A stretch of DNA of 38,047 bases from Kofleriaceae bacterium (GTDB taxonomy: Bacteria > Myxococcota_A > Polyangia > Haliangiales > Haliangiaceae), in the NCBI GenBank assembly GCA_046597055.1, contig JBKJLC010000095.1, positions 1 to 38,047 on the forward strand. The letters run 5' to 3'. This document shows positions 8,339-34,383 of this stretch, in pieces (position 1 is the stretch's first letter; the number at the start of each line of letters is the position of its first letter). The position numbers were made by a program, and so were the translations under genes. Under the pieces are notes generated by a model. That model was not told the origin of the DNA. It searched no databases and was given only the letters and a program-made list of their open reading frames with translations.

Positions 8339-8650
8339 TTAGACGTCAATATCGTTATCGACCACAACCTGCACGCCCGGAAATGCAACAGGCAGCTCGC
8401 CGGCGAGCAGGTCGCGTGTCGCCTCCGTCCCCAGCACTTCGAACTCAGGCTCCGTTACTTCGCGTCCGCCAAGTTCCAGGCTCCAGCAGGCCCACCGGAC
8501 AAGTACTTGATCGCCAGCGCTACTCGCCTCCCACCGAGGCTCGTCCGCCACGCTCACTCTCAGCGTTCCGCTGAAGGGTGTGTGGGCGTCGAGCGCCCGT
8601 TTGATCCGCTGTAGGAATTTTGACTTCGCAAAGCGCGCTTCAAGAGTCAT
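8339..8650 (-). CDS. Putative immunity protein (103 aa) for the Rhs HNH toxin
   Basis: Its ATG overlaps the Rhs stop codon (ATGA at 8647-8650). It is small with an acidic C-terminal half, and I recognise no family. Confidence 0.7.
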   Translation of the reverse strand: MTLEARFAKSKFLQRIKRALDAHTPFSGTLRVSVADEPRWEASSAGDQVLVRWACWSLELGGREVTEPEFEVLGTEATRDLLAGELPVAFPGVQVVVDNDIDV

Positions 8651-11600
8651 TTCGGCTTCCGATCCTTGGGAGGTAACCATTCGGTGCCCAGTTCCTTTTT
8701 ACCTTTCTGGCGATTGCAAGTGCGACAAGTCGCATCGAGATTCTCGTCTACCGTCCCGCCTCCACGAGCGTATGCCTTTCGGTGATCGATCTCCACCGAG
8801 TTAGGTGAGCCAGCCTTCCTGTCCAAGGGTGTGTCACAGTGAGTACACTTTTCGACACCATCGGCGTCCTTTGAACGGTCGAGCGCTGCATCGCGCTGCT
8901 TCGTCGTCGGAGCCCGCCCGGGGCGCTTCGCCAAGTCCTTGCCGTCGGTCGAGCGCCCCGGTCCGCCGAGGAATCGGGGGACAACGTCAAGCGGATTGGG
9001 CGGGTCGACCGCGATGTCGATGACCGACGCAATAATGCCCCCCACGCCGCTCATGCTCTTCGCCATCTTCACCGTGTCCTTGCCTTGGCTCACGATGACT
9101 TGCCGGACGGACTTGTCCCCGGTGAAGCCCGCACTGACCCGCTGAATGAATCTCACATTGTACGCCGCTACAGGATTTAGTGCACTGAGGACGTCAAGAA
9201 TGTCGCGACCGTCCGGATCGAGAAACCGTACAGGATTCTGCGTGCAGAACGCATACAGGCTGGCTCGTCGGGGTTCCCTCCAAGCGGAATCAGGGGCCCA
9301 TCTGTACAGAGGGTCCGCCTGGGTCCAACCGAGCAACACCCCGTCATAGTAGCGGACGCCGTAGTAGCCCAGTGCAGTCAAGTCGTCGCGGAACTTGTCG
9401 TTGAACCTCCGATGCACATCCTTCGCTGCTGCGCCGCTGCTTCGAAGAAGCTCGCCATAAGGCGCATAGACAAAGCCCGCCTTGACGGTGCCATCGGGCG
9501 TGACCGTGAGTAGGGCGTTGTTCGAGAGGCCGTGGTACTGGAGTTCGAGGTCCTCCCGATCGGTGACGCGGGCGACCGGGGTCCCGAGCGAGAGGTGAGC
9601 GGACGAAGTCTTGAGGACGCTGGTGGCGCCGAAGACGAGCTCGGTGTCGCCGAGGAAGACGCGGGCAAGCTGGACGGCGCCGCTGCTGCCACGAGTCACG
9701 ACACCCATACGGGTGCCGGTGTGGTCGTAGAAGTACTCCTCGCGCGCGCCACCGACGGTGGCGCGGCGTAGCTGGTCCTCCCCGTCGTAGGCGAGCGTCT
9801 CCGCGCTTGGACCGCCCGCGCGGGTCGCCATGTTTCCGGCCGTATCGTAGCTGTAGCTACGCAACGGGACGCTGCCACCCACCGGGAGCAGCGCGGAGAC
9901 CGCTTCGGGATCGATGGGAGAGTCGTACTGGTACGTGACGTCGCGATCGACAACGTCCGACCCTGGCGCGGCGACCGACCTGACCGTGGCGCCCAGGAGC
10001 TTGCCGCCATGGGTGAACTGATAGGAGCTGCTGAACTGCCCCGCCGCCTCCTTGACGCTGGTCAGCTGATGCCGGGGATCGTACGTGTAGCCGAAGTCGT
10101 AGTAGCTCGCGCCAAGCCAGTGCTCGAGCCGCTTGGGGTCGTCGTGCCCGTGGTACTCGAGCTTCTGACGGGCCAGCTGCGTAGATGGTAGGTCTGTGAC
10201 GGTCTGAGTTCCAATCCGCGTCAGCCGGTCGTACGTGAACACAGACTCGAACTCTGCGACGTTTGGATCGTTGTGGTGGGCCGCACGCTTGGTGACCAGA
10301 CCGGCCAGATTCCGTGTGTGCTTGGCGACGAGCCTCGAACGCTGGCCGGCCTTCAACAGCCACATCTGGGCCGGCATCGCGCGGTCGTCGTACTCGACCC
10401 GCGCTCCCGTGGCGTTCGAGCTTCCCGCCTCGTTGTCGGCATAGGTGTGCTCTCGGACGCGGCCCCCGGGGCCGTACGAACTAGAAATCGAGCGTGTTCC
10501 GTTCACACCGGCAAACCGGAAGGACCTCGATTCACGGGTCGCGTTGCCTTCGGCATCGTACTCGTAGACGATGTCGAGCACACTGCCAGGGAACGTGACC
10601 GCGCACAGCCGGCCAGCGCCGTTGACACAATTGTCGTGCTTGAAGCTGACGGTACCAACCCCGAACAGGACCTGGTCCGCTGTGGACAGGTTGCGCCCCC
10701 CGACGCTGCGCGAGCGCGGACGGCTAGCCTCGTCGTAGGCGAAGGTCGTGGTGTACGCGAGCGCCAAGGCAGTGCTCGGCGGCGGTGCCGCCTCGGACGT
10801 CAGCTGCCCGTTCTTGTCGTAGCCATACACCCACTTGCGGCCCGCTCGAACGATGGTCTTGCGACGCCCGGCAAAGTCGTGCAACAGCTGCGTCACGACG
10901 CCGTCGGGATTCTGGATCCGGGTGACGGCGTCTCGAGGGTCGTACTGGTAGGTGGTCGTCGCGTACTGAGAGGTGGCGACGTCCGTATACTCGCGCACTT
11001 CGGCGAGCCGCCCGAACTGGTCGTGGACGAGCACCTTACGCCCAGCCGGGCCACCCTCGCCGCCCGCGACCTCGTCGATCTGGTGGACCTGCCCGTTGTA
11101 CGAGATGTCCACGCCGGATGCGGCGCCCAGCACGGCGGGCCGCCGCATCCGGGTGGGTCGGCCCAGGCTGTCGAAGTCGTACAGATATGTGACGGACGGA
11201 AACGGGGTCACCGTCGGGTTCGCCACACTCGGGTCCGGCAGGCTCACGGAGATCAGGTGACCCCGGCGATCGTAGTCATAGGTGGTCACGGCGTCGGCGC
11301 CGAGACCGGTGCGGACGCGGGACTCCTTCGGCCGGGCCTGGCCATCAAGCCGCGTCTCCTCGCGGGTCCAGCGGTCCTCGTCGTACTCGATGCGCGCCTC
11401 GGTCACGACCTTCGTTGGCTGACCGCCGAGGACGTGGTCGGTGTACGTGATGCGCGAGGTGCGCACCTTCTGCCAGACCGGATTACCAGGCAGCTCGACA
11501 TTCACCCAGGTCGAGAGCGTGCGGCCCAGCCCGTCCACGTCCGTCCAGCTCGCCGGCGCGTTGCAGCCGACACCGCACGATGCTGTCGCGGGTCCGCGCA

Positions 11601-14600
11601 CACTCAGGACAGCCCCCGTGCCAGGCTCGTAGGTCCGGTCCATCACGTGGCCCACCTCGTTCGTCGTCCTCGTGACGAAGCGCTTGGTGGGATCGTGCTG
11701 GTATGCCTCGACCGGTCCCGCCGGGAAGTTTCTCGGCGAGCGCGTGCTCCGCGTGATCCCGGTCGTCAGGTCGACGTCCCACACGGTCACTGCCGCATCG
11801 GCGGAAGGCCCATCCTGGAACCATTGCGTCCTGGCCGTCTGCGCGCGATACAGGACGTCGAAGCGGGCGGCCCAGTGGTCGTATAGCACCCGTCCCGTTG
11901 CCGTCTGCTCGTGCGCCTTGTGGTCCTCGATCTGGAGGCGGTAGTTGTTCGCGTCGGAGAAGAGGAAGTTCTTGTCGTAGGTATTCCGGTCGCCCACGGT
12001 GGCGCCGGGACCGGCATTGTCGCTGATGTACTTCTGTTGCAGGACCCACATGAGCGCGGGCCCTCCAGCGACACTGCTCGAGCCTATGGATATCCAGTAG
12101 GTCCGAGTGCGCTGCGGGGGTGTCGCACGGCACGACACTTCGGTCGAACCATTCGTACACGTCCAGTTCCGCTCGTCGGCCGCGTGGTAGGTCACGATCG
12201 CGCCCCCGAACAGCGTGGACTGCTGCCACGTGGTGTCTGCAATCGTGCGGGGATACAGATTTTCTGCCGTGTTGTTGTCTTCGGCGGCGAACGTCCGGAT
12301 GGTCTTCAGCCGACCGCTCCAGTCGACGTCAAAGCCATAGGTATCGATGATCCGCGCACCCGACGGCCGCGTCATCTCGACCTCCTCGAAGCCGCGGAAG
12401 CCCCACTCGCGGCGCTCATCCTGGTTCCAGACGGGGTAGAAGTACTTGTAGGACGAGGTGGAGCGGTCGTCGTCCCACCGATCGCGCGTGGTCAACTCGT
12501 GCACGACCCACTGCGAATGCGGCATCGCCTTACCGCGGGCAGCGTCCTGCACGACCACGCTCGCCTTCGTGGTCGGCGCGTACGAGACCTCCACCGTGCC
12601 GCCAACGCCGTTGTCGATCTTGCGCAGCAGCCGCAGCGGCTGATCGGTGGCGTCGACGTAAGTAGAAATCGTCGCACCCTCGAAGTTCCAGTGCTCCGGC
12701 AGCCCGTCCCCGTCCATGTCGATGAGGTCACGGACGGTCGCCCAGTGGTTGTCGCTTCCCATCATCAGCGCGCTCGTCTTCTGTACCAAGGCCCGCGCGA
12801 GGTTGGGATTGCTGGCCGTCGTGATTCCAGGCAAGAAATCGCCGCCGGCGTTGATGTGCAGTCGCTCCGGGCTCCAGTTCGCAATGGGCGACGCGAGGTC
12901 ACCGGGCCAGCTCTGGATCAGGTCGGCGCGGCCGTCGGCATCGACATCGACCAGGCGAGTCATGCTCCGGCGCCAGCCTTCACGCAGCCAGCCTCGCTCC
13001 ACCGTCGTCGTCTGGGCCCAGCTTCTCGACAGCGAACCCTGGACGCCTCGAAGTTGCTCGGCTTCGGCCAGCGACTGAGCGCGGAACTTGTAGCCATTGC
13101 CGTAGAAGACGAACGCCTGCGTGGGTCCGGTCCCCTGCACGTAGTCGGCGGCACCGTCGCCATTCAGATCTGCCAGCATGTGACCGGTCGCCGTGCTGTA
13201 ATCGTCATGGGTTATCAGATTGCCTGTGCACGACCCCCACGCGTGCCCGAAGCAGCGGGTGTTGCCCTGATTGGGCACAGCACCGTCGGGGGTGAACCAG
13301 GAGTAGAGCCGAGCACCGCTGGGGTCGAAGCCTCCGGCGCCATCGCCCGGGAACACATTCCAGTAGTTGGGGAAGCCCCGGTTGGGGCTGCGCCCGATGG
13401 TCACCAGATCGAGCTTGCCGTCACCGTCGAGGTCCATGATCGCGTGGTCGCTCGTCTGCATGCCGGATCCGCCACCGATGGACGAGTCTCCCGAGTCCGA
13501 CTCGAGCTCCGCAACCTGGTACTTGACCGTTCCTTGGGAGGACAACTTTGCGCCGAGCTGCGGGTCGGGATGATTCTCGTAGACGAGCCAGGGATTGCGG
13601 TCGCAGAGGACCTGCGACCGCGTGTACCCGCAGTGACTCCAGTTCTGCGGCGGTGGCGTGCCGGGCGGCGGCTGCCCAGGGGGCCACGCTGGCGGCAGCC
13701 CGTGATCAGAGATCGCCCAGGCCTCGAATTCCTGTGCGACGGTAACCTCGCGACTGATCTGCTCGGGATCGGTCGGCGTGCCCTGCGCGACGCAGGTCGC
13801 GAGCTTGCCCTGGTCGAAATGAAGTGACTTGTTCACGTCGAGCGCGAGCGCGTCACGCGTGCAGTCGGCGTCGAGCGCGAGGAGCGGCTTGCCGGACTTG
13901 GCGGCGCCGCACGCGGGCCACTGAGTTGTGCCTAGCTGCAACTCGGGGTTCAACGGCAGCGTGTTGGGGTTGAGGTGGTGGCTGGAATGGATCGCGGCGA
14001 CCAGATCGATTCTTCCGTCGGCGTTGACGTCGGTCCAGCGGTAGACCAGGTACGAGCCGATGTTATGGTCGGCACAGTTGCCTGCCACCATCCCCGGAAG
14101 GATGTTGTGGACCTTGGTGCGCTGGAAATTGAGCGTGCACTGCTCGGGATCTTGGCGAGCGCCGGTGGCCCAGGGAAGTCGCGGCATGATCTGCGGGGCC
14201 GACGGCGCTCCGAAACCGATCATGCCGTCTGGCTGCCGGCCCAGGTTTTTCTGCCAGACGAAGGCGCACTCGTTGGCGAAGGCGGCCGACCGCATGATCT
14301 TGTCCGGGAGGCCGTCAGCGTCGAAGTCGAGCAACATGCTGTGAACTGCCGGCCACCCGCCGTCCGACCGAGTGCCCGAGCTCGCGCTGAGTGACACGAT
14401 GTCCGGACTGGGCATCCAGTTGGGTGCCTCCGCCTGCACTCGGTCGAACGTTCGTGCGCGCCGGTTGTACTCGAACGTCACCGGCTCCAGGTCGACCCGC
14501 GGCGCGGAGGTCCCCCATGCGCTCTCCTGGATCGACGTGAGCTGGCGCGTCAGTCCGTGCGATACATAACAGTTGGCAGTGTTAAGATCGTAGCCGAGTG

Positions 14601-15492
14601 TGTACTCGCGCGTGTGCTGGATAGCACCCGATGAGGGCGCGAAGGCGACGGCTCGGATCTTGGTCAGCCGCCGGCGCCCCTCGAGCGAGTTGATGCGCAG
14701 GTCGTCGGCCGCGCCCGGCGCCAGCCGCGTGCCGCAGGTGTCCTCGACGTAGTCGAACTCGACCCGTGCGAACGCCGGAAGACCGGCAGCCGGGTTGGAG
14801 GTATACCGGATCTGCTGGAGCTCGGTGCCTTTCCACTGGTACTCGACGGTGTTGCCGAACGTGTCGACGGTCCGCGTGAGGGGGACCCGCAACGGCTGGT
14901 TCCAGCCAGCGGACAGTTCCGTGTCCCCGAAGTAGTAGGTGGTGCCGTCGGAAGCGCGCGCCCGCCACAGGAAGGCTTGGTCCTCATTCATGCGCTCGTA
15001 CCGCACGTACGAGCCGTCGTTCTGGGCGCGGAACGCACCGTAGGCGCCGGCGCCGCGAGGTTCGGTGACGGCGACCAGCGGACGCCCGCCGGCCATCGAG
15101 CTCACGAAGCGCTGATCGTCCCAGGCGCCGAAGTACAGCTGCTTCAGGAGCGACACCGTGGTGTCGAGTCGGATCTCGGGAACCGACAGGTTCCAGCCGG
15201 CGGCGACGCCGCCGTACGCGGCGCCTTGCGACGAGTAGGCCAGCGCCAGGCTGGGTTGAACCCCACGGCGCCCGGGCGGCACCTGGATGGGGTACGAGTA
15301 CTGAAGTGCGCCGGTCTGGGTGGAGACCGAGGCATCACCATCTTTAAGGTCGCGTGCCTTGGGTGGATCGGCGCCGATCGTCGGCGCCGGCGAGGATGTC
15401 ATGACGTCGCCGGGGACGCCCCATGCCGGGATGGCCATGCTGGCGGCGAGCACGAGACACATGGCTTGTATCGAGATTCGGCCGATTCTCAT
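8647..15492 (-). CDS. Secreted SpvB / FG-GAP / TcdB-midN / YD-Rhs polymorphic toxin with C-terminal HNH endonuclease
   Basis: Signal-peptide-like N-terminus (...LVLAASMAIPAWG); SpvB-type YSYPIQVPPGRRGVQPSLALAYSS; DxDGDG repeats; LLRKIDNGVGG and FRGF; YD repeats; core end RYYD...ADP...NPVRFLDPDG; toxin tip CTHC...IDH...GG...NL...CRTCNRQKG. Confidence 0.93.
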   Translation of the reverse strand: MRIGRISIQAMCLVLAASMAIPAWGVPGDVMTSSPAPTIGADPPKARDLKDGDASVSTQTGALQYSYPIQVPPGRRGVQPSLALAYSSQGAAYGGVAAGWNLSVPEIRLDTTVSLLKQLYFGAWDDQRFVSSMAGGRPLVAVTEPRGAGAYGAFRAQNDGSYVRYERMNEDQAFLWRARASDGTTYYFGDTELSAGWNQPLRVPLTRTVDTFGNTVEYQWKGTELQQIRYTSNPAAGLPAFARVEFDYVEDTCGTRLAPGAADDLRINSLEGRRRLTKIRAVAFAPSSGAIQHTREYTLGYDLNTANCYVSHGLTRQLTSIQESAWGTSAPRVDLEPVTFEYNRRARTFDRVQAEAPNWMPSPDIVSLSASSGTRSDGGWPAVHSMLLDFDADGLPDKIMRSAAFANECAFVWQKNLGRQPDGMIGFGAPSAPQIMPRLPWATGARQDPEQCTLNFQRTKVHNILPGMVAGNCADHNIGSYLVYRWTDVNADGRIDLVAAIHSSHHLNPNTLPLNPELQLGTTQWPACGAAKSGKPLLALDADCTRDALALDVNKSLHFDQGKLATCVAQGTPTDPEQISREVTVAQEFEAWAISDHGLPPAWPPGQPPPGTPPPQNWSHCGYTRSQVLCDRNPWLVYENHPDPQLGAKLSSQGTVKYQVAELESDSGDSSIGGGSGMQTSDHAIMDLDGDGKLDLVTIGRSPNRGFPNYWNVFPGDGAGGFDPSGARLYSWFTPDGAVPNQGNTRCFGHAWGSCTGNLITHDDYSTATGHMLADLNGDGAADYVQGTGPTQAFVFYGNGYKFRAQSLAEAEQLRGVQGSLSRSWAQTTTVERGWLREGWRRSMTRLVDVDADGRADLIQSWPGDLASPIANWSPERLHINAGGDFLPGITTASNPNLARALVQKTSALMMGSDNHWATVRDLIDMDGDGLPEHWNFEGATISTYVDATDQPLRLLRKIDNGVGGTVEVSYAPTTKASVVVQDAARGKAMPHSQWVVHELTTRDRWDDDRSTSSYKYFYPVWNQDERREWGFRGFEEVEMTRPSGARIIDTYGFDVDWSGRLKTIRTFAAEDNNTAENLYPRTIADTTWQQSTLFGGAIVTYHAADERNWTCTNGSTEVSCRATPPQRTRTYWISIGSSSVAGGPALMWVLQQKYISDNAGPGATVGDRNTYDKNFLFSDANNYRLQIEDHKAHEQTATGRVLYDHWAARFDVLYRAQTARTQWFQDGPSADAAVTVWDVDLTTGITRSTRSPRNFPAGPVEAYQHDPTKRFVTRTTNEVGHVMDRTYEPGTGAVLSVRGPATASCGVGCNAPASWTDVDGLGRTLSTWVNVELPGNPVWQKVRTSRITYTDHVLGGQPTKVVTEARIEYDEDRWTREETRLDGQARPKESRVRTGLGADAVTTYDYDRRGHLISVSLPDPSVANPTVTPFPSVTYLYDFDSLGRPTRMRRPAVLGAASGVDISYNGQVHQIDEVAGGEGGPAGRKVLVHDQFGRLAEVREYTDVATSQYATTTYQYDPRDAVTRIQNPDGVVTQLLHDFAGRRKTIVRAGRKWVYGYDKNGQLTSEAAPPPSTALALAYTTTFAYDEASRPRSRSVGGRNLSTADQVLFGVGTVSFKHDNCVNGAGRLCAVTFPGSVLDIVYEYDAEGNATRESRSFRFAGVNGTRSISSSYGPGGRVREHTYADNEAGSSNATGARVEYDDRAMPAQMWLLKAGQRSRLVAKHTRNLAGLVTKRAAHHNDPNVAEFESVFTYDRLTRIGTQTVTDLPSTQLARQKLEYHGHDDPKRLEHWLGASYYDFGYTYDPRHQLTSVKEAAGQFSSSYQFTHGGKLLGATVRSVAAPGSDVVDRDVTYQYDSPIDPEAVSALLPVGGSVPLRSYSYDTAGNMATRAGGPSAETLAYDGEDQLRRATVGGAREEYFYDHTGTRMGVVTRGSSGAVQLARVFLGDTELVFGATSVLKTSSAHLSLGTPVARVTDREDLELQYHGLSNNALLTVTPDGTVKAGFVYAPYGELLRSSGAAAKDVHRRFNDKFRDDLTALGYYGVRYYDGVLLGWTQADPLYRWAPDSAWREPRRASLYAFCTQNPVRFLDPDGRDILDVLSALNPVAAYNVRFIQRVSAGFTGDKSVRQVIVSQGKDTVKMAKSMSGVGGIIASVIDIAVDPPNPLDVVPRFLGGPGRSTDGKDLAKRPGRAPTTKQRDAALDRSKDADGVEKCTHCDTPLDRKAGSPNSVEIDHRKAYARGGGTVDENLDATCRTCNRQKGKKELGTEWLPPKDRKPK

Positions 15493-15585
15493 ATCGGGAG
15501 CTCCGTTCGGGAGGCGGTCGGTGCACTGGCTCCGCCAGGTCGGCTGTGGTGCCAGCGTCGAATCGAACTTTGGGTGGGGGCGTGG

Positions 15586-15966
15586 CTACTCGTCGCGGCA
15601 GGCCGCGAGCGCATCGGTTGTGCCCGCGGCGAGTCGGCAACGGACGCCTGCGGGTGATGCGGTAGCCAAGCATTCGTCGACGAACGAGGCAGCGAGACGC
15701 TCGGTCAGGGCCGCCTTGTGCTGGTCGCGGTCGGCGGTCACGGACTGGAGCCGGAGCTCCACGCTGTGGTCTCGCAGCTGCTCGCACGAGCGGCGGGACG
15801 CGGTGGTCGCTGCCTCCTCGCCCCCGCACGCTGCGAGTGCGGCGATGACCAGAGCGGCGGCGGTCCGCCAAAGGCGAACCTGGGCGGGCCGCGCGCTGGT
15901 GGTCGGGTGACGGGTGGCGGGTCCGGCTGTGACCGGTGCGAAGGGAGCCTGTTGCCTGCGGTGCAT
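15586..15966 (-). CDS. Small Cys-rich lipoprotein
   Basis: Hydrophobic stretch ending in lipobox LAAC, with four more Cys in the mature part. The true start may be later than 15966. Confidence 0.72.
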   Translation of the reverse strand: MHRRQQAPFAPVTAGPATRHPTTSARPAQVRLWRTAAALVIAALAACGGEEAATTASRRSCEQLRDHSVELRLQSVTADRDQHKAALTERLAASFVDECLATASPAGVRCRLAAGTTDALAACRDE

Positions 15967-16004
15967 GGCGACCTCGGTGAGGTATCGGCGTTCGGGTGGC
16001 GGGG

Positions 16005-16904
16005 TCAGGGAGCGCGATGGGCGACCCAGAGGTCACTCGGTGCGCCATCGGTGCGGTGGAAATAGAGGGCACAGCCGTCGGGCGAGACGAAGGTCGGGTA
16101 GCTGAAGCCGCGGCCGCTCAGCTCGGTCACCTCCGCGGGTTCGCCCCAGGCGGCGTCAACCGACTCGCGCTGCGCCGTCCACAGGTGGTCGCCACCCCAG
16201 CTGGACCAGAAGAGACGCAGGCCGTCGGTCGACTCGACCGGGGTCACGGCGGCGTCGTGACGGTCGAGACCGTCCATCCGCCGGGCGACCCCGAGGTTTC
16301 CGTCGGTCGCCACCGACACGGCCGCGAGCGTGGAGGTCGACGCAGCGTCGCCCTGTGTGTCGACGAACAGGAGGGCCTGCGGGGTGAGGTATGGCTGGCG
16401 CTGGAACGAGGTCGCCGATGGCGGGAGGCTCGTGACGCTCGCCGGGACCACCGTGACGAACGTTGCCGAGCTCGACGCCCGCGTGGCTCGCCACAGGTTG
16501 TTGTCCCGCTGGAAGTAGAGCGTCCGGCCGTCGGCCGACACGGTCGGATAGGACTCGTGCGCGGGGGTGGCGAGCTCCTCGATCGGCCGAGGCGTGCCGA
16601 AGTCGTCATCGATGCTGGCCCGGGTCGCGGTGAAGAGATCGGCCGCGCCGTTCACGGTCGCCTGACGGTGGAAGTAGACGGTCAGCTCGTCGGGCGACAG
16701 GCGGGCCCCGCCTTCGTGCAGCGGACTGTTGAGCGACCGGATTGGCACCGCCTCGTGGAAGGGCGCCGCCGGATCGCAGCGGCTGGGGGCAGCGTCGGGG
16801 TCGCTCGAGCCGGGCTCTGCCTGGTAGAGCGTGCACCCGGCCGCGCCGAGGGCGATCACGAGGCTCAAAGCCGGGCGCGCCGGGCGTACGTGGTTTCTCG
16901 ACAT
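16005..16904 (-). CDS. Lipoprotein with TolB/PD40-like beta-propeller repeats (copy 1)
   Basis: Lipobox AAGC; repeats LSPDELTVYF, VSADGRTLYF, ESTDGLRLFW, VSPDGCALYF. ATG at 16904. Confidence 0.85.
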   Translation of the reverse strand: MSRNHVRPARPALSLVIALGAAGCTLYQAEPGSSDPDAAPSRCDPAAPFHEAVPIRSLNSPLHEGGARLSPDELTVYFHRQATVNGAADLFTATRASIDDDFGTPRPIEELATPAHESYPTVSADGRTLYFQRDNNLWRATRASSSATFVTVVPASVTSLPPSATSFQRQPYLTPQALLFVDTQGDAASTSTLAAVSVATDGNLGVARRMDGLDRHDAAVTPVESTDGLRLFWSSWGGDHLWTAQRESVDAAWGEPAEVTELSGRGFSYPTFVSPDGCALYFHRTDGAPSDLWVAHRAP

Positions 16905-16938
16905 GCCCGCCCTATCGACGGTCGCGAGCGGAGTTGCG
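16905..16938 (-). promoter_or_regulatory. Putative ECF-sigma promoter GCAAC-N15-CGATA, 8 nt before the ATG
   Basis: The same bipartite motif and spacing lies upstream of the paralog at 18547-18580, with a diverged spacer. Confidence 0.6.
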
Positions 16939-17215
16939 GGTTTTTTTCGCTCGTCTGCCGACAACTGCGGCCGACCGTCAGTGCCGGTACCCGCGCGCCG
17001 GGCGCCACGCTGCGACCGGGCGCCGGGTTGGTGGCGGGGCCGCTGCCTGATCGAGGGTGTCCTGGCGCCCGACGCTGCGCGCCTGGCGATGGGCATCGGC
17101 AGCCGGCAGGTCGCGCCGCGGCCGCCGTGATGGTCGTGGTGCGGCTGCCCGCCCGGCCCGGCGCCGTTGACCTGCACGGCGCTGCCGGGGTTGGCTGACC
17201 GGCTGGCCGCCTATC

Positions 17216-17551
17216 TCATTCGACCCTCGCGAAGGCGGGATGATGGCCGTCGACGTCGGCCAGGTCGACATGGCCGATCTGGAGCTCCCCGGTTCCGTCC
17301 GCGTCGTCGGTCAGCAGCACGGCGAGGTGCTCGGCGAGATCCAGAACCCGTGCCAGCCGGTCGTGACTTTCTTGCGCGTAGGCCATGGCGCGAGCTGCCG
17401 CGAGGAGGCGATCGAGGACCCGCAGCGCCGCGCTGCCCCCGAACGCGTCGCTCGCTCGGACACGGTCGTCTCGCGGGTCTCGCTCGGGCTGGAGGCCGCT
17501 CACCGGGGGAACCAGATGCCGCGGGCGACCGGGGTTGCCGATGTTGGGCAT
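17216..17551 (-). CDS. Hypothetical protein (111 aa)
   Basis: Co-oriented with its neighbours, AAGGA upstream and a helical-looking core; no motif recognised. Confidence 0.4.
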   Translation of the reverse strand: MPNIGNPGRPRHLVPPVSGLQPERDPRDDRVRASDAFGGSAALRVLDRLLAAARAMAYAQESHDRLARVLDLAEHLAVLLTDDADGTGELQIGHVDLADVDGHHPAFARVE

Positions 17552-17649
17552 GACATGTCCTTGGTCCAGGTCATCGAGCCTGTCGTCGCGGCAGCACGCT
17601 TCGAGGCGCCAGATCCAGAACGAGTCGCCCGACGCGATCCCGGCTCAGA

Positions 17650-18546
17650 TCAGAGTGCCCGCTGGGCGGACCAGATGTCGGGTTCGCCGCCCTCGGGGGC
17701 GCGGTCGAGGTAGATCACGCAGCCGTCAGGCGAGATCCACGACGGGTACGCGGGGCCGCCGCCGGCGAGCTCGGGCAGCTCTTGCGCAGGCACCCAAGCC
17801 GAGTCGAGCGATCCGCGTCGCGCGGTCCGGATCGTGAGGCCGCCCCAGTCGGCGAACCCTGCCCAGAACAGGAGCCGCCCGTCAGCCGACTCGATCGGGC
17901 TGAGCGGCATGGTCTCGACATCGATCCACTCGGCGAGGCCGAGGGTGCCATCGGGCTGCAGCGGCGCCCGGGCCAGCTTGTAGCTCGCGAACTGCGCGAC
18001 CTCCGTGAACAGCAGGCCGTTGGGCGCGAGATAGGGGTCGAGCTGGTCGAAGTCGTCCCAGTCCGGGACGGCGGTGACGGTGGTCTGGGTCGGGATCGAG
18101 AACGGAGCAGAGGTGGAGTTGCGGGTGGTGCGCCAGACGTGGTCGTCACGCTGAAAGTAGAGGGTCAGGCCGTCGGCTGAGGGGGCTGGCGAGAGCTCGA
18201 GCGCCGGGGTGCTGAGCTCGCTGACGGTTCGCGCCGGGCCGAAGTCTTGATCGGCCGCGGACCGGGTAGCGACGTACAGGTCGAAATCGCCCGGGGTCAC
18301 CTCGCGATGGAAGTAGACGGTCAGCTCGTCAGGCGACAGGCGGGCCCCGCCTTCGCCCGCTGCGGTGTTGAGCGAAGCGACCGGGGTCGGCGGCAGGAAT
18401 GACGCCTCGGGATTGCAGCGCTGCGGGATGGCATCGGGCACGCTCGGCGGCATGGTTTCCTGATCGACGCCGCAACCGAGGAGGTTGGTTGCGACGGCCA
18501 GCGCGGCGGCCGCGAGCGCGGGGCCCGACGTTCGAGTGATCGACAT
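17650..18546 (-). CDS. Lipoprotein with TolB/PD40-like beta-propeller repeats (copy 2)
   Basis: Lipobox LLGC; LSPDELTVYF, PSADGLTLYF, ESADGRLLFW, ISPDGCVIYL; collinear with copy 1. ATG at 18546. Confidence 0.85.
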   Translation of the reverse strand: MSITRTSGPALAAAALAVATNLLGCGVDQETMPPSVPDAIPQRCNPEASFLPPTPVASLNTAAGEGGARLSPDELTVYFHREVTPGDFDLYVATRSAADQDFGPARTVSELSTPALELSPAPSADGLTLYFQRDDHVWRTTRNSTSAPFSIPTQTTVTAVPDWDDFDQLDPYLAPNGLLFTEVAQFASYKLARAPLQPDGTLGLAEWIDVETMPLSPIESADGRLLFWAGFADWGGLTIRTARRGSLDSAWVPAQELPELAGGGPAYPSWISPDGCVIYLDRAPEGGEPDIWSAQRAL

Positions 18547-18580
18547 GCCCGCCCTATCGCCGCCGGCGCCAGGAGTTGCG
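18547..18580 (-). promoter_or_regulatory. Putative ECF-sigma promoter GCAAC-N15-CGATA (second copy)
   Basis: Minus strand reads CGCAACTCC-N12-CGATAGGGCGGGC-ATG, with the same architecture as 16905-16938. Confidence 0.6.
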
Positions 18581-18584
18581 TCTT

Positions 18585-19034: not shown

Positions 19035-19181
19035 GGTGCCGATGATACCGGGGTCCCGGGTGGCTACGAGCGAGCGGTCGGTCTGGATCGGTGCCGCCCG
19101 CAGCGCAGCTATCGAGAATCATGGCAATACCTGGCAAGCACGGCTGTAAAATTGCGCTCGCCGTTCACGGCGGGAGACGCC

Positions 19182-21878: not shown

Positions 21879-21946
21879 GTTGACCTGCTCCCTCTCCGGA
21901 CCCACCCTGCCATTTCGGCTTTCTCGTCCACCTGCTCGGGGCACCT

Positions 21947-23707: not shown

Positions 23708-25060
23708 TCAGTTGATCGGCTGGACGTTCGGGTCGGGCGGCGGTTGATAGCCCGGATCCGGCGGCGGCGCCGGCGGCACCTCGTTCGGCTGCATGGGCGG
23801 CGGCTCGTAGGGCCGGTCCTGCGCCGGCGGCGGGATCGGCGGCGGCGCCATCTCGGCCGAGCCCGGCGGCGGCGGTTGCCCGGTCGTCGGCCGGTCGGCG
23901 CTGTTGTCGAACGTCTTGCTGGGGCTGTTGGGGTCGGTCATGGGACGGCCCATCTCGCCGACCGGCTTGCCCATGTCGACCGGCGGTGGCGTGAGCGCGG
24001 GCAGCGGCGTCGGCTCGACCGGCCGCACCGGCTCGCTGTCGAGCGTGGGCCGCGAGCGAACGCCACCGCCGGTGGTGGGCGTCGAATCCTCGCCATCGGT
24101 CGCGCAGGTGGCGCCGATGCGGCGCATCGAGGTCAGCTTGCCGGTCAGCTTGATGTCGTGGAAGCCGCGCGAGTCGATCGCCGGGCTGCTGAAGTCACAG
24201 GTGCCGGCGAACTTGGGCCAGCGGGTCTTCAGCGCGTCCGAGCACTTGTAGCTGATGCAGCCGACGATCGTGGAGTCGCCGATCTTCTTGGCGAGCTTGA
24301 TCGTGAAGTCGAGCTGCGCCTCGCCATCGGGCGACACCATCTCGAACTTGCGACGCTTGGCCTCGCCCTTCGCGATGTCGATCCCGAGCTCGAAGCGGGT
24401 GATCTTGATCTCCGGCACGACCGTGCCGTCCTTGACGAACGCCTGGTCGGACTCGCGCTTGGCCTTGGGATAGATCCGGGTCACGCCGTCGCCGATCACG
24501 CAGCCGACCTTGCACGACAGGTCCAGCTTGCCCTTGGCCTTGCTCCAGTCGCCGGTCGGCAGATCGAGCGAGAACGCGCCGTCGCCGTTGCCGAACAGCG
24601 GGAGCCCGACCGCGTCGCCGATGCCGGGGATGGTGGCCAGCGGCACGTTGCGCAGCCGGAAGTCGATCGAGGTCGCCTGCTTGCTGAGCCGGACGGTGCC
24701 GGCCATCGAGCCCTGGGGGGTCGCCACGTCGAGGCCGATCTCGACCTTCTTGCTCAGGAGGGGCAGGAACGCGATGTCGACCTCGACCCGCTTGAAGTAC
24801 ATCGTGGTGACCGCCTCGTTGGCGACGGTCGGCCGCGACCGCAGGGTGACCGCGGTGAGCGAGAACCGCCCGGGCATGATGCTGCGCTCGACGCCGCCGA
24901 TGACGACGTCGTACTTGGTGGCCAGCGCCTCCTCGATCTTGTCCTTGACCCGGTGGTACGGGAACGTCAGGTGCAGCGCGTACACGAACGCGAACACCGC
25001 CAGCGCGACGTAGCCGAAGATGCGGAGGCCGAAGCGGGCACGCGGAGACAGCGTCATCAT
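23708..25060 (-). CDS. gspN: Type II secretion protein N with long Pro-rich tail
   Basis: N-terminal TM followed by LTFPY; last gene of the gsp operon; start overlaps the gspM stop. Confidence 0.78.
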   Translation of the reverse strand: MMTLSPRARFGLRIFGYVALAVFAFVYALHLTFPYHRVKDKIEEALATKYDVVIGGVERSIMPGRFSLTAVTLRSRPTVANEAVTTMYFKRVEVDIAFLPLLSKKVEIGLDVATPQGSMAGTVRLSKQATSIDFRLRNVPLATIPGIGDAVGLPLFGNGDGAFSLDLPTGDWSKAKGKLDLSCKVGCVIGDGVTRIYPKAKRESDQAFVKDGTVVPEIKITRFELGIDIAKGEAKRRKFEMVSPDGEAQLDFTIKLAKKIGDSTIVGCISYKCSDALKTRWPKFAGTCDFSSPAIDSRGFHDIKLTGKLTSMRRIGATCATDGEDSTPTTGGGVRSRPTLDSEPVRPVEPTPLPALTPPPVDMGKPVGEMGRPMTDPNSPSKTFDNSADRPTTGQPPPPGSAEMAPPPIPPPAQDRPYEPPPMQPNEVPPAPPPDPGYQPPPDPNVQPIN

Positions 25061-25659
25061 CAGCCACCCTTCTTGCCGGCGGTGCCGGTGCCGGTGCCGG
25101 TGCCGGTCCCGGTGCCAGTCGGCTCGGCGATCTTGGCCCAGGTCACGATCTCGCAGGTGAGGTCGACCTTCTCCTTGTCGCGGAAGTTGCGACGCATCGT
25201 CATCGAGCTCACCAGCACGATGGGCGAGGTGTTCTCGATCGCCTCGAAGAAGTCCTTGGCCTGGGCCAGGGTCAGCTCGCGCAGCTCGATGCCGACCGCG
25301 TGGGCGACGAACTTGCCGCGCGGGGTCGGGGTCCGCTTCTTGACCTCCGACACCGCGACGTTGGCCTTCTTGCCGGCCTCGAAGACGTAGGTCTCGAGGC
25401 CGATCGGGTCGACGCCGATCTTGGTGACCGGGTCGTCGGCGCTGACGCTCTTGCTCTGCGACTGCGAGGCGGCGAGCGTCACCAGCGCCCGCCGGGCGCG
25501 GGCGTTGCGAGCATCGAGCGCGTCGAGGCCGCGCTTGATCTCGATCGAGACGTAGATGATGAGGATGAGGATGGTGGAGACACCGAGGAGCACCACCATC
25601 CGCCGCTCGCGCGGGGTGATGGATTCCCACTTGTCACGGAGCTTATCGAGAGACGCCAT
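25060..25659 (-). CDS. gspM: Type II secretion protein M
   Basis: WESITPRERRMV plus TM, coiled coil, position after gspL. Confidence 0.85.
   Translation of the reverse strand: MASLDKLRDKWESITPRERRMVVLLGVSTILILIIYVSIEIKRGLDALDARNARARRALVTLAASQSQSKSVSADDPVTKIGVDPIGLETYVFEAGKKANVAVSEVKKRTPTPRGKFVAHAVGIELRELTLAQAKDFFEAIENTSPIVLVSSMTMRRNFRDKEKVDLTCEIVTWAKIAEPTGTGTGTGTGTGTAGKKGG
25081..25116. repeat. Hexamer tandem repeat (GGTGCC) x6, one imperfect, encoding a Gly-Thr tail
   Basis: ggtgcc x4, ggtccc, ggtgcc at the 3' end of gspM. Confidence 0.85.
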
Positions 25660-25665
25660 GGGTCC

Positions 25666-27282
25666 TCACATGCACTCGGAGCGGATGGTGAAGGAGAAGT
25701 TCATGACGTCGGCCACCGCCTGCATCGAGCCACGCGTCACCTCCTTGAAGCAGGTGATCTGCTTGAGCGCCGCCTCGATCAGGTCGACCTCGGCCGGGGT
25801 CTTGGCCGACGCCTTGAGGATGACCTTGTCGTCCTTGATCTCGAGCTCGGAGACGTCGAGGGTCACCTTGTCGCGCGGCGGCAGCTTCTCGTTGATCTGC
25901 AGCAGCAGATCGTAGGCGGACATGTCGGGCATCGGCGAGTCGCCGGCGACGACCGCCGACTTGGAATCCTTCAGGATCTGGTCGACGGTCCTGACCTCGT
26001 TGTGCACCGCGAGCGACTCGACCGCGACCCGCTCGTTCAACGTCTTCTCCGCCTGGCGCAGCTTGCGCAGGCCGGTCCACGCCGACGCCCCGGCGAACGC
26101 CAGGACCACCAGCATCGCCGCGGCGACCTGGGTCAGCTTGGTCTTCACGAACGACATGTCGACCTTGAACGCCAGCTCGCCCTGGCGCAGGTCGAGGCTG
26201 GGGCGGCCGCCGCCGAGATCGTGGGCGGCGGCGATCGCGAGCGCGCCGGCGTCGATCGCGGTGGCGGCGCCGAGCTTGACGCCGACCAGCGCGACCGCGT
26301 CGGTCTCGGCCAGGTGCGAGGTCGGCACGCCGAGCTCGCCGGCGACGTACGCGGGCAGCCCGCGCAGGCGACTGCCGCCGCCGACCAGGACCACCCGGCT
26401 GGCGGCGACGCCGGTCTTGGCGCGGCACGCGGCCAGGGTCTGGCGCAGCTCGCGCGCCCACGGCCCGACCTCGCCGACCAGGACCTCGTGGACCCGCGCC
26501 CACGCCTCGCTCGGCGCCGGGTTGGTCGCCGAGCCGATGAAGCCGTCGGTGTGCTTGGCCTGCTCGGCCTCGGCGAACGGCAGCTTCCAGACCCGGGCGA
26601 TCGCCTCGGTGACGCCGCGACCACCGCGGCCGATCGACCGCGAGTACAGCGGTCGACCGCCCTGGGCCAGCACGACGTGGGTGTGGTCGTGGCCGACGTC
26701 GACGATCGCGACCGCGCCGGGGCCGGCCAGCGACGGCGCCCGCTCGGCCAGCCGCGACAGCACCGCGACCGGGACCAGGCCGCGGGCCTCGTTGCCGGCG
26801 GCAGCGGTGAGCGCGAGCAGCTCGCGCGCCCGCTGCAGGCGCATCGAGTAGGTCAGCACCCGCATGCCGGTGGTCGGCCCCGCGACCCGGCCGCGGACGG
26901 CGGCGTCAGGCCCGGGCTCGGCCAGCGCCGGCAGCGCCTCGGCCGCGTAGACCAGATCCTCGAGGTCGACCGGGACCACGCCCTCGAGCTCACCACCGAC
27001 GATCTTGTCGAGATCCTGCCGGCGGGTGGTCTTGAACGCGAACTCGAGCACGTGGACGAACAGCTGGGCGCCGCCGACCACGAGGTAGCCGGTGTCGCGC
27101 TCGAGGTGCTGCTCGCGGATGATCGCGGCGAGCACCCGGCCGGCCCGCAGCTCGTGCGGCTCGTCGCCGGGCGGGACCGGGCGCTCGATCAGCTCGCTGA
27201 TGGCGGCGTGGCGCAGCCCGGCGTGGGCGATCGCCACCTTGACGCTCCAGGTGCCGAGGTCGATGGAAAAGATGCGGCTCAT
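25666..27282 (-). CDS. gspL: Type II secretion protein L (PilM-like actin-fold domain, TM, periplasmic domain)
   Basis: SIDLGTWSVKV, IVDVGHDHT and VVLVGGGSRLRGL, followed by a TM; lies between gspK and gspM. Confidence 0.85.
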   Translation of the reverse strand: MSRIFSIDLGTWSVKVAIAHAGLRHAAISELIERPVPPGDEPHELRAGRVLAAIIREQHLERDTGYLVVGGAQLFVHVLEFAFKTTRRQDLDKIVGGELEGVVPVDLEDLVYAAEALPALAEPGPDAAVRGRVAGPTTGMRVLTYSMRLQRARELLALTAAAGNEARGLVPVAVLSRLAERAPSLAGPGAVAIVDVGHDHTHVVLAQGGRPLYSRSIGRGGRGVTEAIARVWKLPFAEAEQAKHTDGFIGSATNPAPSEAWARVHEVLVGEVGPWARELRQTLAACRAKTGVAASRVVLVGGGSRLRGLPAYVAGELGVPTSHLAETDAVALVGVKLGAATAIDAGALAIAAAHDLGGGRPSLDLRQGELAFKVDMSFVKTKLTQVAAAMLVVLAFAGASAWTGLRKLRQAEKTLNERVAVESLAVHNEVRTVDQILKDSKSAVVAGDSPMPDMSAYDLLLQINEKLPPRDKVTLDVSELEIKDDKVILKASAKTPAEVDLIEAALKQITCFKEVTRGSMQAVADVMNFSFTIRSECM

Positions 27283-27301
27283 GACGGGGACCTCATCGCG
27301 A

Positions 27302-28651
27302 CTACTCCTCCCGGAGGTACAACCAGTAACCCTTGGGCGTGAACGGGCTGCGCGTGTTCTCGGTGGACACGGTGTGCCGCTGATCCCAGACCGAGCGAAT
27401 CGTGCGGCGGATCGGCAGGAATGGTTCCCGCGCGATCTCGGAGTACGCCTCGACCTCGTACACGCCGATGGCCTTTGACGACGCGATCTGGTTGAGCGGG
27501 CCGTCCGCGGACTCGTCGAGGATGATGCCCTTGACGCCAGGTGGCACGAAGTTCGGCGGCGGAGCCGGAGCCGCCCCCGTCCCGCCGGCGGCGCTCTCGG
27601 CCGCGATCCCGGCGAACAGCGCGGCCGGATCGGCCACGAACTCGGCGAAGTCCTTGGTCGACTCGAAGGTGATGCCGAAGTCCTTGGCCTTCAGCACCAG
27701 GTCCGCGATCGCGTACAGCACGACCGGATTGAGCACGTTGGGGTCGTTGGGATCCTTGGCCGCCAGCGAGATCACCGCGGCCACCACGTTGCGGTCATCG
27801 AGCGCGCGCAGGTTGACCTTGCACTCACCATGGACCCGGAACGCCTTGCCGAACAGGATCCAGAACCGGTCGTCGATGCCGCGCACCAGCTTCAGCTCGG
27901 CCACCGAGTCGAGGTAGTTGTTCTTGGCCTTGTAGCTGTCCCGCAACGTCTCGTAGCCGTAGTCCTCGGGCGCGCTCGAGGTCTGCCAGGTATCCTTGAC
28001 CAGCTCGATCTTGTAGCTGTTGGTATCGACGTAGTCGATGATCGCGGCGACCTGGGTCCGCCGGTCGCGGCGCCAGCCGTCGGCGTCGGCCTCTTCGAAC
28101 AGCGGGTCGAACGCGGTCGGGAACAGCAGGGTCTCGATCGTGCGCGCGATCAGGTTGGCCTGTTTGATGTTGTTCGCGCAGTTGACGTTGATCTTGCCGT
28201 CGACAGGGACCAGCCGGACCCCGAAGGTGCCGATGTCCGAACCGAGACCCTTGCCCTGGCTGGCGCTGATGCCGATCGCCGATTCGACCTGCTCGGCGTC
28301 GCCGCCGAACGCAGCCATGATGGTGTCGGCGTACATCGTCACGTTGACGCCGACCATCCTCTCGGCGCCCGGCTTGCCCTCCATCCCGGCCGCCTGCTTG
28401 TCGATCTGGTCCTGGAGGCGAAGGACGATCTCGGTCAGGTTCAGCGACGAGCGGGCCAGGAAGTGGCCGCGCATCTGATCGAGGTTGTTGCGGGCCTGCA
28501 TCATGTCGACGCTGGTGCGGGTCCCGAACTCGTTGACGATGACCATGCAGATCGCGACCGCGGTGATGACCGCGAGCAGCGCGATGCCGCGCTGGCCGGC
28601 GCGGGCGCCGCGGGCGCCGCGGCCACGACGAGGTTGACGGCGGGCTGACAT
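27302..28651 (-). CDS. gspK: Minor pseudopilin K
   Basis: QRG|IALLAV, GKINVN, AIIDYVD and YKAKNNYLDSVAELKLVRGI. Confidence 0.9.
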   Translation of the reverse strand: MSARRQPRRGRGARGARAGQRGIALLAVITAVAICMVIVNEFGTRTSVDMMQARNNLDQMRGHFLARSSLNLTEIVLRLQDQIDKQAAGMEGKPGAERMVGVNVTMYADTIMAAFGGDAEQVESAIGISASQGKGLGSDIGTFGVRLVPVDGKINVNCANNIKQANLIARTIETLLFPTAFDPLFEEADADGWRRDRRTQVAAIIDYVDTNSYKIELVKDTWQTSSAPEDYGYETLRDSYKAKNNYLDSVAELKLVRGIDDRFWILFGKAFRVHGECKVNLRALDDRNVVAAVISLAAKDPNDPNVLNPVVLYAIADLVLKAKDFGITFESTKDFAEFVADPAALFAGIAAESAAGGTGAAPAPPPNFVPPGVKGIILDESADGPLNQIASSKAIGVYEVEAYSEIAREPFLPIRRTIRSVWDQRHTVSTENTRSPFTPKGYWLYLREE

Positions 28652-29315
28652 CAATTTTGCTTCACCAGCGGCTCTTGCAGGAGCAGCCGGGCCTGCGTGG
28701 AAACCTTGAGCTCGTCGCCGCGCGGGGTCTTGTAGTGCAGTGTGATCCGGACCCGGGTCGGCAGCTTGTTGCGCTCGCCGTCGGCCTTGGTCGAGTCCCA
28801 TGTGTCCTGCCACTTCTTGTCCTTCCAGTCCCAGTACTCGAGCTCGATCTTGTCGACGTTGCGCAGCAGCACGTCGAGCTCGGCCGGCTCGCTGGTCCAG
28901 GTCTCGTTGGACAGCCGGCGCAGCTCCTTGCGGTACAGGTTGTCGACCCCGGCCTGCTCGCGGTCATCGTCGAGGTAGTAGGCGACGATCGCCTGGTCGG
29001 ACTCGTTGGCGTCGGCCCACAGCGAGACGTGCGCGAAGGTCGAGAACCGCAGCTCCTCGTCCTTGCCGATGAACATCGTGCGGCGGTTGTCGATGGTCTG
29101 ATCCTCGTTGGACGACAGGTGGGCGGCCTCGAGGTCGTAGACCATCCTCGCCATCGCGACCCGCACCTCCTGGTTGCGCTCCTCGAGCGCCTCGAAGTTG
29201 ACCCGGGCGTCGGACGCGTTCTTGATCGTCGACCAGGCCAGCATCATCATGAACGCCATGATCGCCATGGCGATCATGATCTCGACGAGGGTGAGACCGC
29301 GCTGGCGCCGCCTGG

Positions 29316-29319
<4 letters not shown>
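28651..29319 (-). CDS. gspJ: Minor pseudopilin J
   Basis: QRG|LTLVEIMIA prepilin motif, WQDTWDS...LPTRVRITL. Confidence 0.9.
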
Positions 29320-29977
<658 letters not shown>

Positions 29978-29978
<1 letters not shown>

Positions 29979-30805
29979 CACCGCTCCTGGACGCGGTCGC
30001 CGGTGGCGTCGCGCAGCATGTGATCGTCGGGGTTGCGCATCGTCCCGTCGCGGACCTCGACCCGCCCGGTCACCCCGTGGATGAGCAGCGAGTAGACGTG
30101 GTCGTCGCCGGAGCCGAGCTCGATGATCGCCTTCTCGGCCCAGCCGAGCGGGAAGAACGAGATGCTGACCTGCCCGCTGGTCACCGAGCTCTCGAGGTGC
30201 TGGACCCACACCTCGCGCAGCTTCACGCCCTTGGACGTGTTGAGCTGCCGCTTGAGCTGGCGGCCCTCGGCGTCGAGCGAGATCAGCCCCGCCAGCTCGG
30301 GCGTCGCCGCGCCGCCGAGCTCGTGGCACACCCGGCCGCCGACCTGCTTGCCGGCCAGCGCGGTCGCCATCCGAGCGTCGTCCTCGGGCGAGCTGCTCTG
30401 CAGCACCCCGCCCGGTACGCTGGCCAGCCGCAGCTGGGCCTCCTCGAGCGCCTTCTGCTGGGCGGCGACGTCGACCGCTTCCTCTTCCTTGACCCGGCGG
30501 AGCGCGGGGTCCCCGGCGCACGCCTCGACCCAGTAGGCGTTCTTGTCGAAGTCGAGCACCAGCCGCATCGGCATGCTGGCCTCGACCGCGAGCACCTGCG
30601 TGCGGCGCACGACCGACGACAGGTCGTTGGCGTCGTCGCCGAGCGCGGCGTGGGTGAGCATGCGGAAGCCGCTGTAGCCGAGCGACACCCCGAACCCGAT
30701 GATCGCCATCACGATCATCAGCTCGAGCACGGTGAGCCCGGCCGCGCGGCGGCGCCGGGCGGTCGATCCGCCGCGGCGGACATGAGGGGCTCGAAGGTTG
30801 GACAT
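29978..30805 (-). CDS. gspH: Minor pseudopilin H
   Basis: AG|LTVLELMIVMAIIG and ISFFPLG...IHGVTGRV. Confidence 0.85.
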
Positions 30806-30841
30806 GGGGATCGGGCGGTCAGCGGGTGACGTGCGTGCCGG

Positions 30842-31264: not shown

Positions 31265-31329
31265 GGTGGTCTCCTTGCGGCGCGCGGATGGGAACAGGTG
31301 CGGGATCACTTGCCGGTGCATCGGCCGGG

Positions 31330-32570: not shown

Positions 32571-32571
<1 letters not shown>
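31330..32571 (-). CDS. gspF: Type II secretion inner-membrane platform protein F
   Basis: FTRQLATLLKSG, YVSMVRAGEVAGNL, AMIYP, FARTLGTMLSSGVP and LLEP. Confidence 0.95.
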
Positions 32572-34382
<1,811 letters not shown>

Positions 34383-34383
34383 C

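Follow-up and report, generated by a model that had tools for sequence, protein, structure and literature searches.

The 38,047-nucleotide stretch analysed here (the window: contig JBKJLC010000095.1, positions 1 to 38,047, of assembly GCA_046597055.1 from a Kofleriaceae bacterium) is a whole contig of an 8.4-Mb genome of 72% G+C, 94% complete and 7.6% contaminated. Its minus strand carries the gene of a 2281-aa polymorphic toxin of the SpvB/Rhs type, with the gene of a small lipoprotein directly upstream and, directly downstream, a 103-aa open reading frame (ORF) which is likely to specify the immunity protein. A GspC_delta match, Polyangium homologues of the 103-aa ORF and the Atlas taxa of proteins resembling the lipoprotein all point to Myxococcota as the source. 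Read from the order of genes here and in relatives, the three make up a cassette, in which the small lipoprotein is very probably the functional partner of the Rhs protein. While the toxin type is known, the small four-cysteine lipoprotein is the new part: titles and abstract openings, in a mostly open literature, hold no dedicated lipoprotein for SpvB-Rhs toxins, the supplements of PMC3482391 and the primary paper on Rhs4/5 being outside this scope.

Linkage of the small lipoprotein to one Rhs clade

In the 138 genomes of the family, the lipoprotein has matches in 81 and the N-terminal half of the Rhs protein in 98. Forty loci were taken from the upper part of the list of matches to this Rhs half, long contigs being favoured, and one of them had no upstream sequence. 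Among the remaining 39, the lipoprotein gene lies directly upstream of the Rhs gene and co-oriented with it in 36, is divergent in one and absent in two. Conversely, an Rhs start is found within 1.5 kb of 28 of the 30 best lipoprotein matches, one of the two misses being at a contig end and the other genuine within 1.6 kb. In a set of 87 non-redundant Rhs sequences (rows), the lipoprotein gene is co-oriented in 66, divergent in one and missing in 20, one of these having no upstream sequence. A quick tree of 83 rows, picked by their likeness to the query and left after four short rows had been dropped, displays a main clade where the lipoprotein gene is directly upstream in 58 of 60 rows, the two exceptions being 5'-truncated and devoid of a signal peptide; outside this clade it is present in five rows, divergent in one and absent in 17. 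A previous reading of this DNA, made from the sequence only, had put forward two PD40 lipoproteins, together with the small cysteine-rich one, as possible partners of the toxin: the small one is borne out by these counts and the PD40 proteins are not, as a PD40 homologue is near Rhs in none of the 39 loci, 37 of which have at least 5.2 kb of upstream sequence.

The association is not limited to one copy per genome. At least two lipoprotein-Rhs pairs are present in 13 of the 49 genomes where the pair was seen, every Rhs gene then having its own copy; the other neighbours vary between loci while the lipoprotein stays, and it travels with the cassette to new sites. A sigma-54-like element (TGGC-N7-TTGC) is found upstream of the lipoprotein gene in 9 of 56 loci, as compared with 0.6 per shuffle, so that the transcription unit probably starts at the lipoprotein. 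This pattern suggests that, in relatives, the cassette may be under sigma-54 control. A gene for a sigma-54-dependent activator is also seen upstream of the lipoprotein at eight loci (L031, L032, L033, L036, L037, L052, L053 and L056), adjoining it directly in seven and one gene further in the eighth. The copy in the window has neither a sigma-54-like element nor an activator gene; a search for sigma-70 promoters found none, and terminator-like sites were at chance level.

The lipoprotein itself has a long n-region, a lipobox (LAA/C47) and a mature part of about 80 aa, where a linker of 10-18 residues leads to a predicted four-helix fold (pLDDT 87). Its four cysteines and the lipid cysteine are, all five, invariant in 56 sequences. 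It has no Pfam or NCBIfam family, Foldseek against the PDB gave no match at E<=0.001, and an Atlas search returned only unnamed Myxococcota lipoprotein clusters; it is one branch of a large family (1075 clusters at E<=0.001). Lysine at +2, the reported inner-membrane retention signal in M. xanthus (PMC3222651), is present in none of the 56 copies. A distinct and well-conserved branch of four-cysteine lipoproteins, often with lysine at +2, was observed away from Rhs (L122, L125, L127, L128, L144 and L160). Prediction of a complex between mature residues 8-80 of the lipoprotein and Rhs residues 26-945 returned 'no answer' (score 0.00) and thus counts neither for nor against binding, and the residues specific to the Rhs clade are spread along the protein, indicating no single binding site.

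We may ask, at this point, whether the lipoprotein is a passenger, co-regulated with the toxin and fulfilling an envelope role of its own without ever touching it. The size of its family would fit this view, as would its distant members, since across the phylum no Rhs start lies near distant four-cysteine lipoproteins (0 of 23 loci), and a few close copies have no intact Rhs gene behind them (L117, L118, L119 and L123). Yet not one of the clade's 58 intact rows has lost the gene, whereas every other neighbour changes, and it has moved with the cassette, so that a mere passenger seems to us distinctly improbable.

The toxin, its exchangeable tip and the immunity gene

The architecture of the Rhs protein is already known: it is that of the polymorphic toxins grouped in 2012 as the 'TcdB/TcaC' class, in which a signal peptide is combined with SpvB, a propeller of integrin-like type and RHS repeats, and which counts delta-proteobacteria among its hosts (PMC3482391). 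The protein of the window has a signal peptide (by a heuristic), SpvB and FG-GAP domains, an RHS core followed by a variable tip and, by linkage, an adjacent immunity gene. The SpvB/FG-GAP/Rhs layout and the HNH tip that had been proposed from the sequence were recovered by Pfam and NCBIfam models, with TcdB_midN at residues 918-1046 and RHS repeats matched by PF05593. A profile of the N-terminal half matches, in the PDB, YenB and SpvB over about 180 residues (YenB at E 1e-11), while a PDB search with the single Rhs sequence gave no match; a search for related loci with the single Rhs half likewise left none of 34 candidates confirmed. At the scale of the phylum, the first 325 mature residues have matches in 108 of 401 genomes. 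SpvB matches six times in the source genome, where more Rhs genes or fragments are found on contigs C133, C262, C63/C10, C83, C227, C142, C50 and C151, most of which have signal-like N-termini and SpvB or FG-GAP domains; the Rhs gene of C142 has, coupled to it directly upstream, an ORF of 1446 aa that resembles a lipoprotein and matches no family.

In the window protein, as in 39 of 39 homologues, the conserved mature start comes after a hydrophobic stretch, and this, within the limits of a heuristic, upholds the signal peptide claimed earlier. No lipobox cysteine is seen at the cleavage site, and the signal is predicted to be of the signal peptidase I (SPI) type. The twin-arginine (Tat) pathway was considered and rejected, a strict Tat motif being present in 0 of 39 homologues. 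From these sequences, export of the Rhs protein by Sec is held with high confidence.

The motif PVRFLDPDG has been kept in 26 homologues with differing tips, and pairwise comparison of these tips gave one weak match only: the tips are exchanged after the DPxG core. The tip (0.60) and the downstream ORF (0.61) are lower in G+C than the Rhs body (0.66). Many homologue tips have a moderately hydrophobic stretch ahead of the toxin domain. In the window, the tip carries CTHC, DH and CRTCNRQ, hence the CxxC-DH-CxxCxxQ pattern, and matches PF01844 above cut-off; an NGO1392-like HNH domain (CxxC, DH, CxxC, Q) is on the list of 'TcdB/TcaC' tips (PMC3482391).

The start codon of the 103-aa ORF shares the sequence ATGA with the stop codon of the Rhs gene. 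The ORF has six homologues, of 52-67% identity, and a confidently predicted fold (pLDDT 88); it has no Pfam or NCBIfam match, no Foldseek match in the PDB at E<=0.001 and no usable Atlas match. At two of the six loci retrieved with its alignment, the same HNH tip is immediately upstream, with 70 and 78% identity over 86 aa; a third has a decayed copy of the tip, at a fourth another small gene stands between the ORF and a nearby Rhs core, and two have no such toxin upstream. Since its homologues come after this HNH tip even where the carrier is unrelated, the ORF is likely to be the immunity gene of this tip. The proposal that the locus encodes a nuclease toxin with a coupled immunity gene is thus sustained by the HNH domain and by the linkage of tip and immunity gene in homologous loci, and we deem it highly probable, on domain and linkage grounds, that the tip would act as a nuclease and the ORF as its antidote. 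In Polyangium fumosum (L187:7414-9285), the same HNH tip and immunity gene are found on an unrelated lipoprotein of about 510 aa, the N-terminal part of which matches no SitA or other NCBIfam or Pfam model; this carrier possibly belongs to an undescribed SitA-like family.

Export and the role of the lipoprotein

The way in which these components may work together can be pictured as follows. After crossing the inner membrane by Sec, the Rhs protein would fold in the periplasm into a closed shell, similar to that of the B and C components of Tc toxins, around its nuclease tip, which would be cut off inside the shell by self-cleavage at DPDG, a reaction established at DPxG for Rhs cores (PMC7861908). 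The lipoprotein would bind the shell in the periplasm and act as its tether to the outer membrane; once secreted, likely by the type II pathway, the tethered shell would be on display for contact-dependent killing of related bacteria. Taken as a whole, this scheme is tentative, our confidence in it falling somewhat short of even.

Other ways out of the cell were compared across the 138 family genomes, split into 49 that bear the lipoprotein-Rhs pair and 89 others (many genomes are incomplete, and the others were in part uninspected for the pair). As noticed previously from the sequence, the window holds no PAAR, VgrG of a type VI secretion system (T6SS), Eag or TcA model match, 28 + 23 of its ORFs having been scanned. 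The source genome has no VipB and no Hcp; its VgrG-like matches are below cut-off, and the best of them belong to a cluster resembling an extracellular contractile injection system (eCIS). With VipB in 0 of 49 pair-bearing genomes, against 14 of 89 others, T6SS delivery was rejected. TcA was not found either in the source genome (94% complete) with PF18276 and PF20220, the former being a working model since it has matches in 34 relatives; TcA is present in 10 of the 49 pair-bearing genomes and in 24 of the 89 others, hence without enrichment. The earlier suggestion of a Sec-type route that dispenses with T6SS and TcA agrees with these distributions. As for TcA-like genes in general, they are of about 3000 aa and are present in 34 of the 138 family genomes, 8 of 16 in the same genus; the eCIS-like cluster of the source genome (C74:152-23286) comprises tube, baseplate, VgrG-related and sheath-like genes.

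Might the shell, as a fused B+C component, nevertheless dock on a TcA encoded elsewhere, or be loaded into the eCIS of this genome? Its SpvB end is homologous to YenB, TcA exists in the family and an eCIS-like cluster is at hand. However, TcA has no match in the source genome or in 39 of the 49 pair-bearing genomes, the signal peptide would keep the shell apart from cytoplasmic eCIS loading, and no immunity genes are predicted at true Tc loci (PMC7861908), which makes this alternative highly improbable.

Exchange of outer membranes by TraAB, invoked in the sequence-only reading, would have the lipoprotein tie the shell to the outer membrane and TraAB carry it into the periplasm of the neighbour, in the manner of SitA. 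A lipoprotein carrier does exist for the same tip and immunity gene in Polyangium fumosum, the layout of the cassette resembles sitB-sitA-sitI (PMC8546572) and the lipoprotein copies have no lysine at +2. TraAB has been reported in all three suborders (PMC6372800). In the source genome, the TraB model scores 159 bits at best, where 700 is the cut-off, and none of the TraB-like genes that were checked has a TraA-like MYXO-CTERM gene immediately upstream (no TraA model was searched). A TraB match at E<=1e-60 is found in 0 of 49 pair-bearing genomes, as compared with 9 of 89 others, and the four family genomes with TraB matches of 490-533 bits are not among these 49, only nine candidates having been scored per genome. 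TraAB is accordingly not retained as the route, and we regard it as very unlikely.

The T2SS (type II secretion system) is the only tested route found in all pair-bearing genomes: GspC is present in 136 of 138 family genomes, both misses being outside the 49, and has three matches in the source genome. We give even chances to its being the way by which the Rhs protein would cross the outer membrane. The T2SS cluster of the window includes an AsmA-like GspN and is syntenic in a genome of the same genus (G127).

If the shell does leave in this way, the lipoprotein could be a transient periplasmic chaperone or plug that helps it to fold, keeps it shut or hands it to the T2SS, the shell being then released free. 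The linkage data fit such a role equally, and the presence of one copy per Rhs gene suggests cognate pairing; T2SS substrates of Acinetobacter need specific membrane-associated chaperones (PMC4713064), and 19 cysteines, for the most part at loop-like spacing, are found in the Rhs body ahead of the tip. Sister clades of the same layout, however, mostly do without the lipoprotein, and some 80 aa on a linker of 10-18 residues resemble a tether as much as a foldase. The tether is preferred by analogy, myxobacterial teneurin-like shells with their predicted fused lipid anchor being set against the Acinetobacter chaperones, and we see the chaperone as rather unlikely. Physical binding of lipoprotein and Rhs as a lasting tether, to which gene linkage points, remains nearly as plausible as its contrary, if slightly less so.

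A number of facts weigh against the tethered shell. The main clade has an SH-aLRT (Shimodaira-Hasegawa-like approximate likelihood ratio test) support of 90 only, in a quick tree. The 17 rows without lipoprotein have the same layout and include three paralogues in the source genome itself, which means that the lipoprotein is not indispensable to shells of this kind. None of 24 Rhs loci in other families has it within 1.5 kb, and the 23 loci of distant relatives of the lipoprotein mentioned above tell the same from the other side. Adjacency was inherited within one clade, so that the rows are not independent and shared regulation could suffice. Alanine at +7, the signal for export to the matrix in M. 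xanthus (PMC3222651), is present in only 6 of 56 copies, and no longer or fused form of the lipoprotein was found, which is weak evidence; the best 150 of 1075 matches are at most 427 aa long. Finally, GspC is near-universal in the family, so that finding it carries little weight, and a genetic link between the T2SS cluster and the cassette was rejected, the cluster being syntenic in G127 where there is no cassette. The broader proposal, namely that in one clade a disulfide-bonded lipoprotein of 80 aa was taken on as cognate anchor in trans, in place of TcA, T6SS and TraAB, is put forward with slightly more reserve than the tether itself.

The locus and its place among known systems

The genes listed in the sequence-only reading are all in place and co-oriented in the ORF calls of the window, five on the minus strand: PD40a, PD40b, small lipoprotein, Rhs and 103-aa ORF. 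The 111-aa ORF between the PD40 genes and the type II secretion cluster were absent from that reading (Table 1).

Table 1. Coordinates of the features discussed, in the numbering of the window
Feature	Position	Strand	Basis or remark
103-aa likely immunity protein, unnamed family	8339..8650	-	start overlaps Rhs stop
2281-aa SpvB/FG-GAP/TcdB_midN/Rhs polymorphic toxin	8647..15492	-	domain models
Exchangeable tip, 186 aa, with HNH nuclease motif	8650..9207	-	HNH at residues 2216-2266
Rhs core (TIGR03696, residues 2009-2095) ending PVRFLDPDG, predicted self-cleavage site	9208..9468	-	
FG-GAP propeller and TcdB_midN, residues ~385-1046, start approximate	12355..14340	-	PF13517, PF01839, PF12256
SpvB domain, residues 59-229	14806..15318	-	PF03534; profile matches YenB and SpvB chains
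Predicted Sec/SPI signal peptide, residues 1-25	15418..15492	-	sequence; hydrophobic stretch in homologues
Small lipoprotein, 126 aa from ATG 15966	15586..15966	-	lipobox by eye; probable partner gene of Rhs clade
PD40 lipoprotein b	16005..16904	-	PD40 domain match; lipobox by eye; neighbour
111-aa ORF	17216..17551	-	between PD40 genes, co-oriented
PD40 lipoprotein a	17650..18546	-	PD40 domain match; lipobox by eye; resident gene of locus
Type II secretion gene cluster	23708..37589	-	GspC, D, E, F, pseudopilins, K, N, PilM-like; resident

Synteny with G127 extends from the T2SS cluster to aspS; the single PD40 gene found there lies some 20 bp away from the aspS stop, and none of the three cassette genes (lipoprotein, Rhs and immunity) stands between them. 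This arrangement is most simply read as an insertion of the cassette, with aspS on one side and a resident PD40 gene on the other. The identity of PD40a and PD40b is 46%, and they have a common 46-nt leader, which fits a local duplication; PD40b is probably a tandem duplicate of PD40a, and it may have come in with the cassette. Membership of the PD40 lipoproteins in the delivery module could be upheld on the grounds that PD40b and the small lipoprotein are co-oriented across a gap of 38 nt, making read-through possible, and that PD40b is missing from the empty site in G127. However, besides the absence of PD40 from the homologous Rhs loci, none of the nine best other PD40 loci has an Rhs start or the small lipoprotein within 1.5 kb, G127 keeps its PD40 gene beside aspS with the cassette absent, and the PD40 genes have a leader of their own, so that this part of the earlier proposal does not survive and we credit it with hardly any probability. 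In the two leaders (16898-16943 and 18540-18585, coding strand), GCAAC and CGATAG are kept 15 nt apart, and, as a guess, they may be a promoter of the extracytoplasmic function (ECF) type.

Several neighbours can be mentioned in passing. The 111-aa ORF matches no family, is without paralogue in the genome and is not at the G127 site. A ChrR-like anti-sigma gene (zf-HC2 and cupin; 19152-19820, plus strand) is unmatched at the syntenic site of G127, and no adjacent sigma gene was seen. Two HtrA-like protease ORFs follow (19828-22504, minus strand); the match of the larger one in G127 is spread over two frames, and that of the smaller one is unbroken. At the contig end (72-836, minus strand) stands a ParB/KorB-like ORF, and a similar one is near Rhs on contig C227, a possible sign of a mobile element.

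The export of Rhs shells with signal peptides and of teneurin-like shells, their retention at the surface and their opening are an open question in the sections of PMC10433427 and PMC13018210 that deal with them, and a strictly linked small partner gene gives a concrete handle. One Myxococcota family has the cassette in at least 49 of its 138 genomes, none of these 49 with VipB or a strong TraB match, and it may be a main weapon for kin killing of that lineage. Two unnamed families are brought to light, that of the lipoprotein and that of the immunity protein for an HNH tip common to this toxin and to a lipoprotein toxin of Polyangium. Were the lipoprotein an anchor, it would be the first named accessory factor for this class of toxins, and the pair would be a two-component route for the surface display of encapsulated toxins.

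It remains to place the cassette among its known counterparts. The 'TcdB/TcaC' class has the signal peptide, SpvB, propeller, RHS and HNH motif in common with the window protein; it differs in that no dedicated upstream lipoprotein is described in the passages of PMC3482391 consulted, while the window has one, and in that this paper pairs the HNH tip with Imm-SuFu, 13, 21, 33 and 38, while the immunity protein of the window matches no Pfam model. Rhs4 and Rhs5 of M. xanthus are likewise large, have signal sequences, act in kin discrimination without T6SS or outer-membrane exchange and are thought to be displayed at the surface; they are, however, of about 4000 aa, lie in Mx-alpha prophages and have no partner lipoprotein in the account given by PMC10433427. 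With the B and C components of Tc toxins (YenB/YenC), the window protein shares SpvB, the propeller, TcdB_midN, the Rhs shell, the DPxG core and a variable tip. It differs from the complete ABC system in being one chain, with a signal peptide, an immunity gene and no linked TcA, and its match to YenB covers only about 180 residues. SitBAI toxins have the same order of accessory gene, toxin and immunity gene, and nuclease tips; SitA, however, as presented in PMC8546572, is a lipoprotein itself, with an escort domain of about 375 aa, and depends on TraAB, which the pair-bearing genomes appear to lack. Lastly, the bacterial teneurin-like proteins are stand-alone exported YD shells with a cleaved toxin and an immunity gene, common in Myxococcota (PMC13018210). 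These have an FN-plug/NHL superfold and are, in that description, predicted lipoproteins themselves, whereas the window protein, in which no NHL or teneurin model match was found, has FG-GAP and SpvB instead, with an SPI-type signal and the putative anchor on a separate gene. If the lipoprotein is indeed an anchor, it would serve in trans the purpose for which teneurin-like toxins have their lipid anchor fused.

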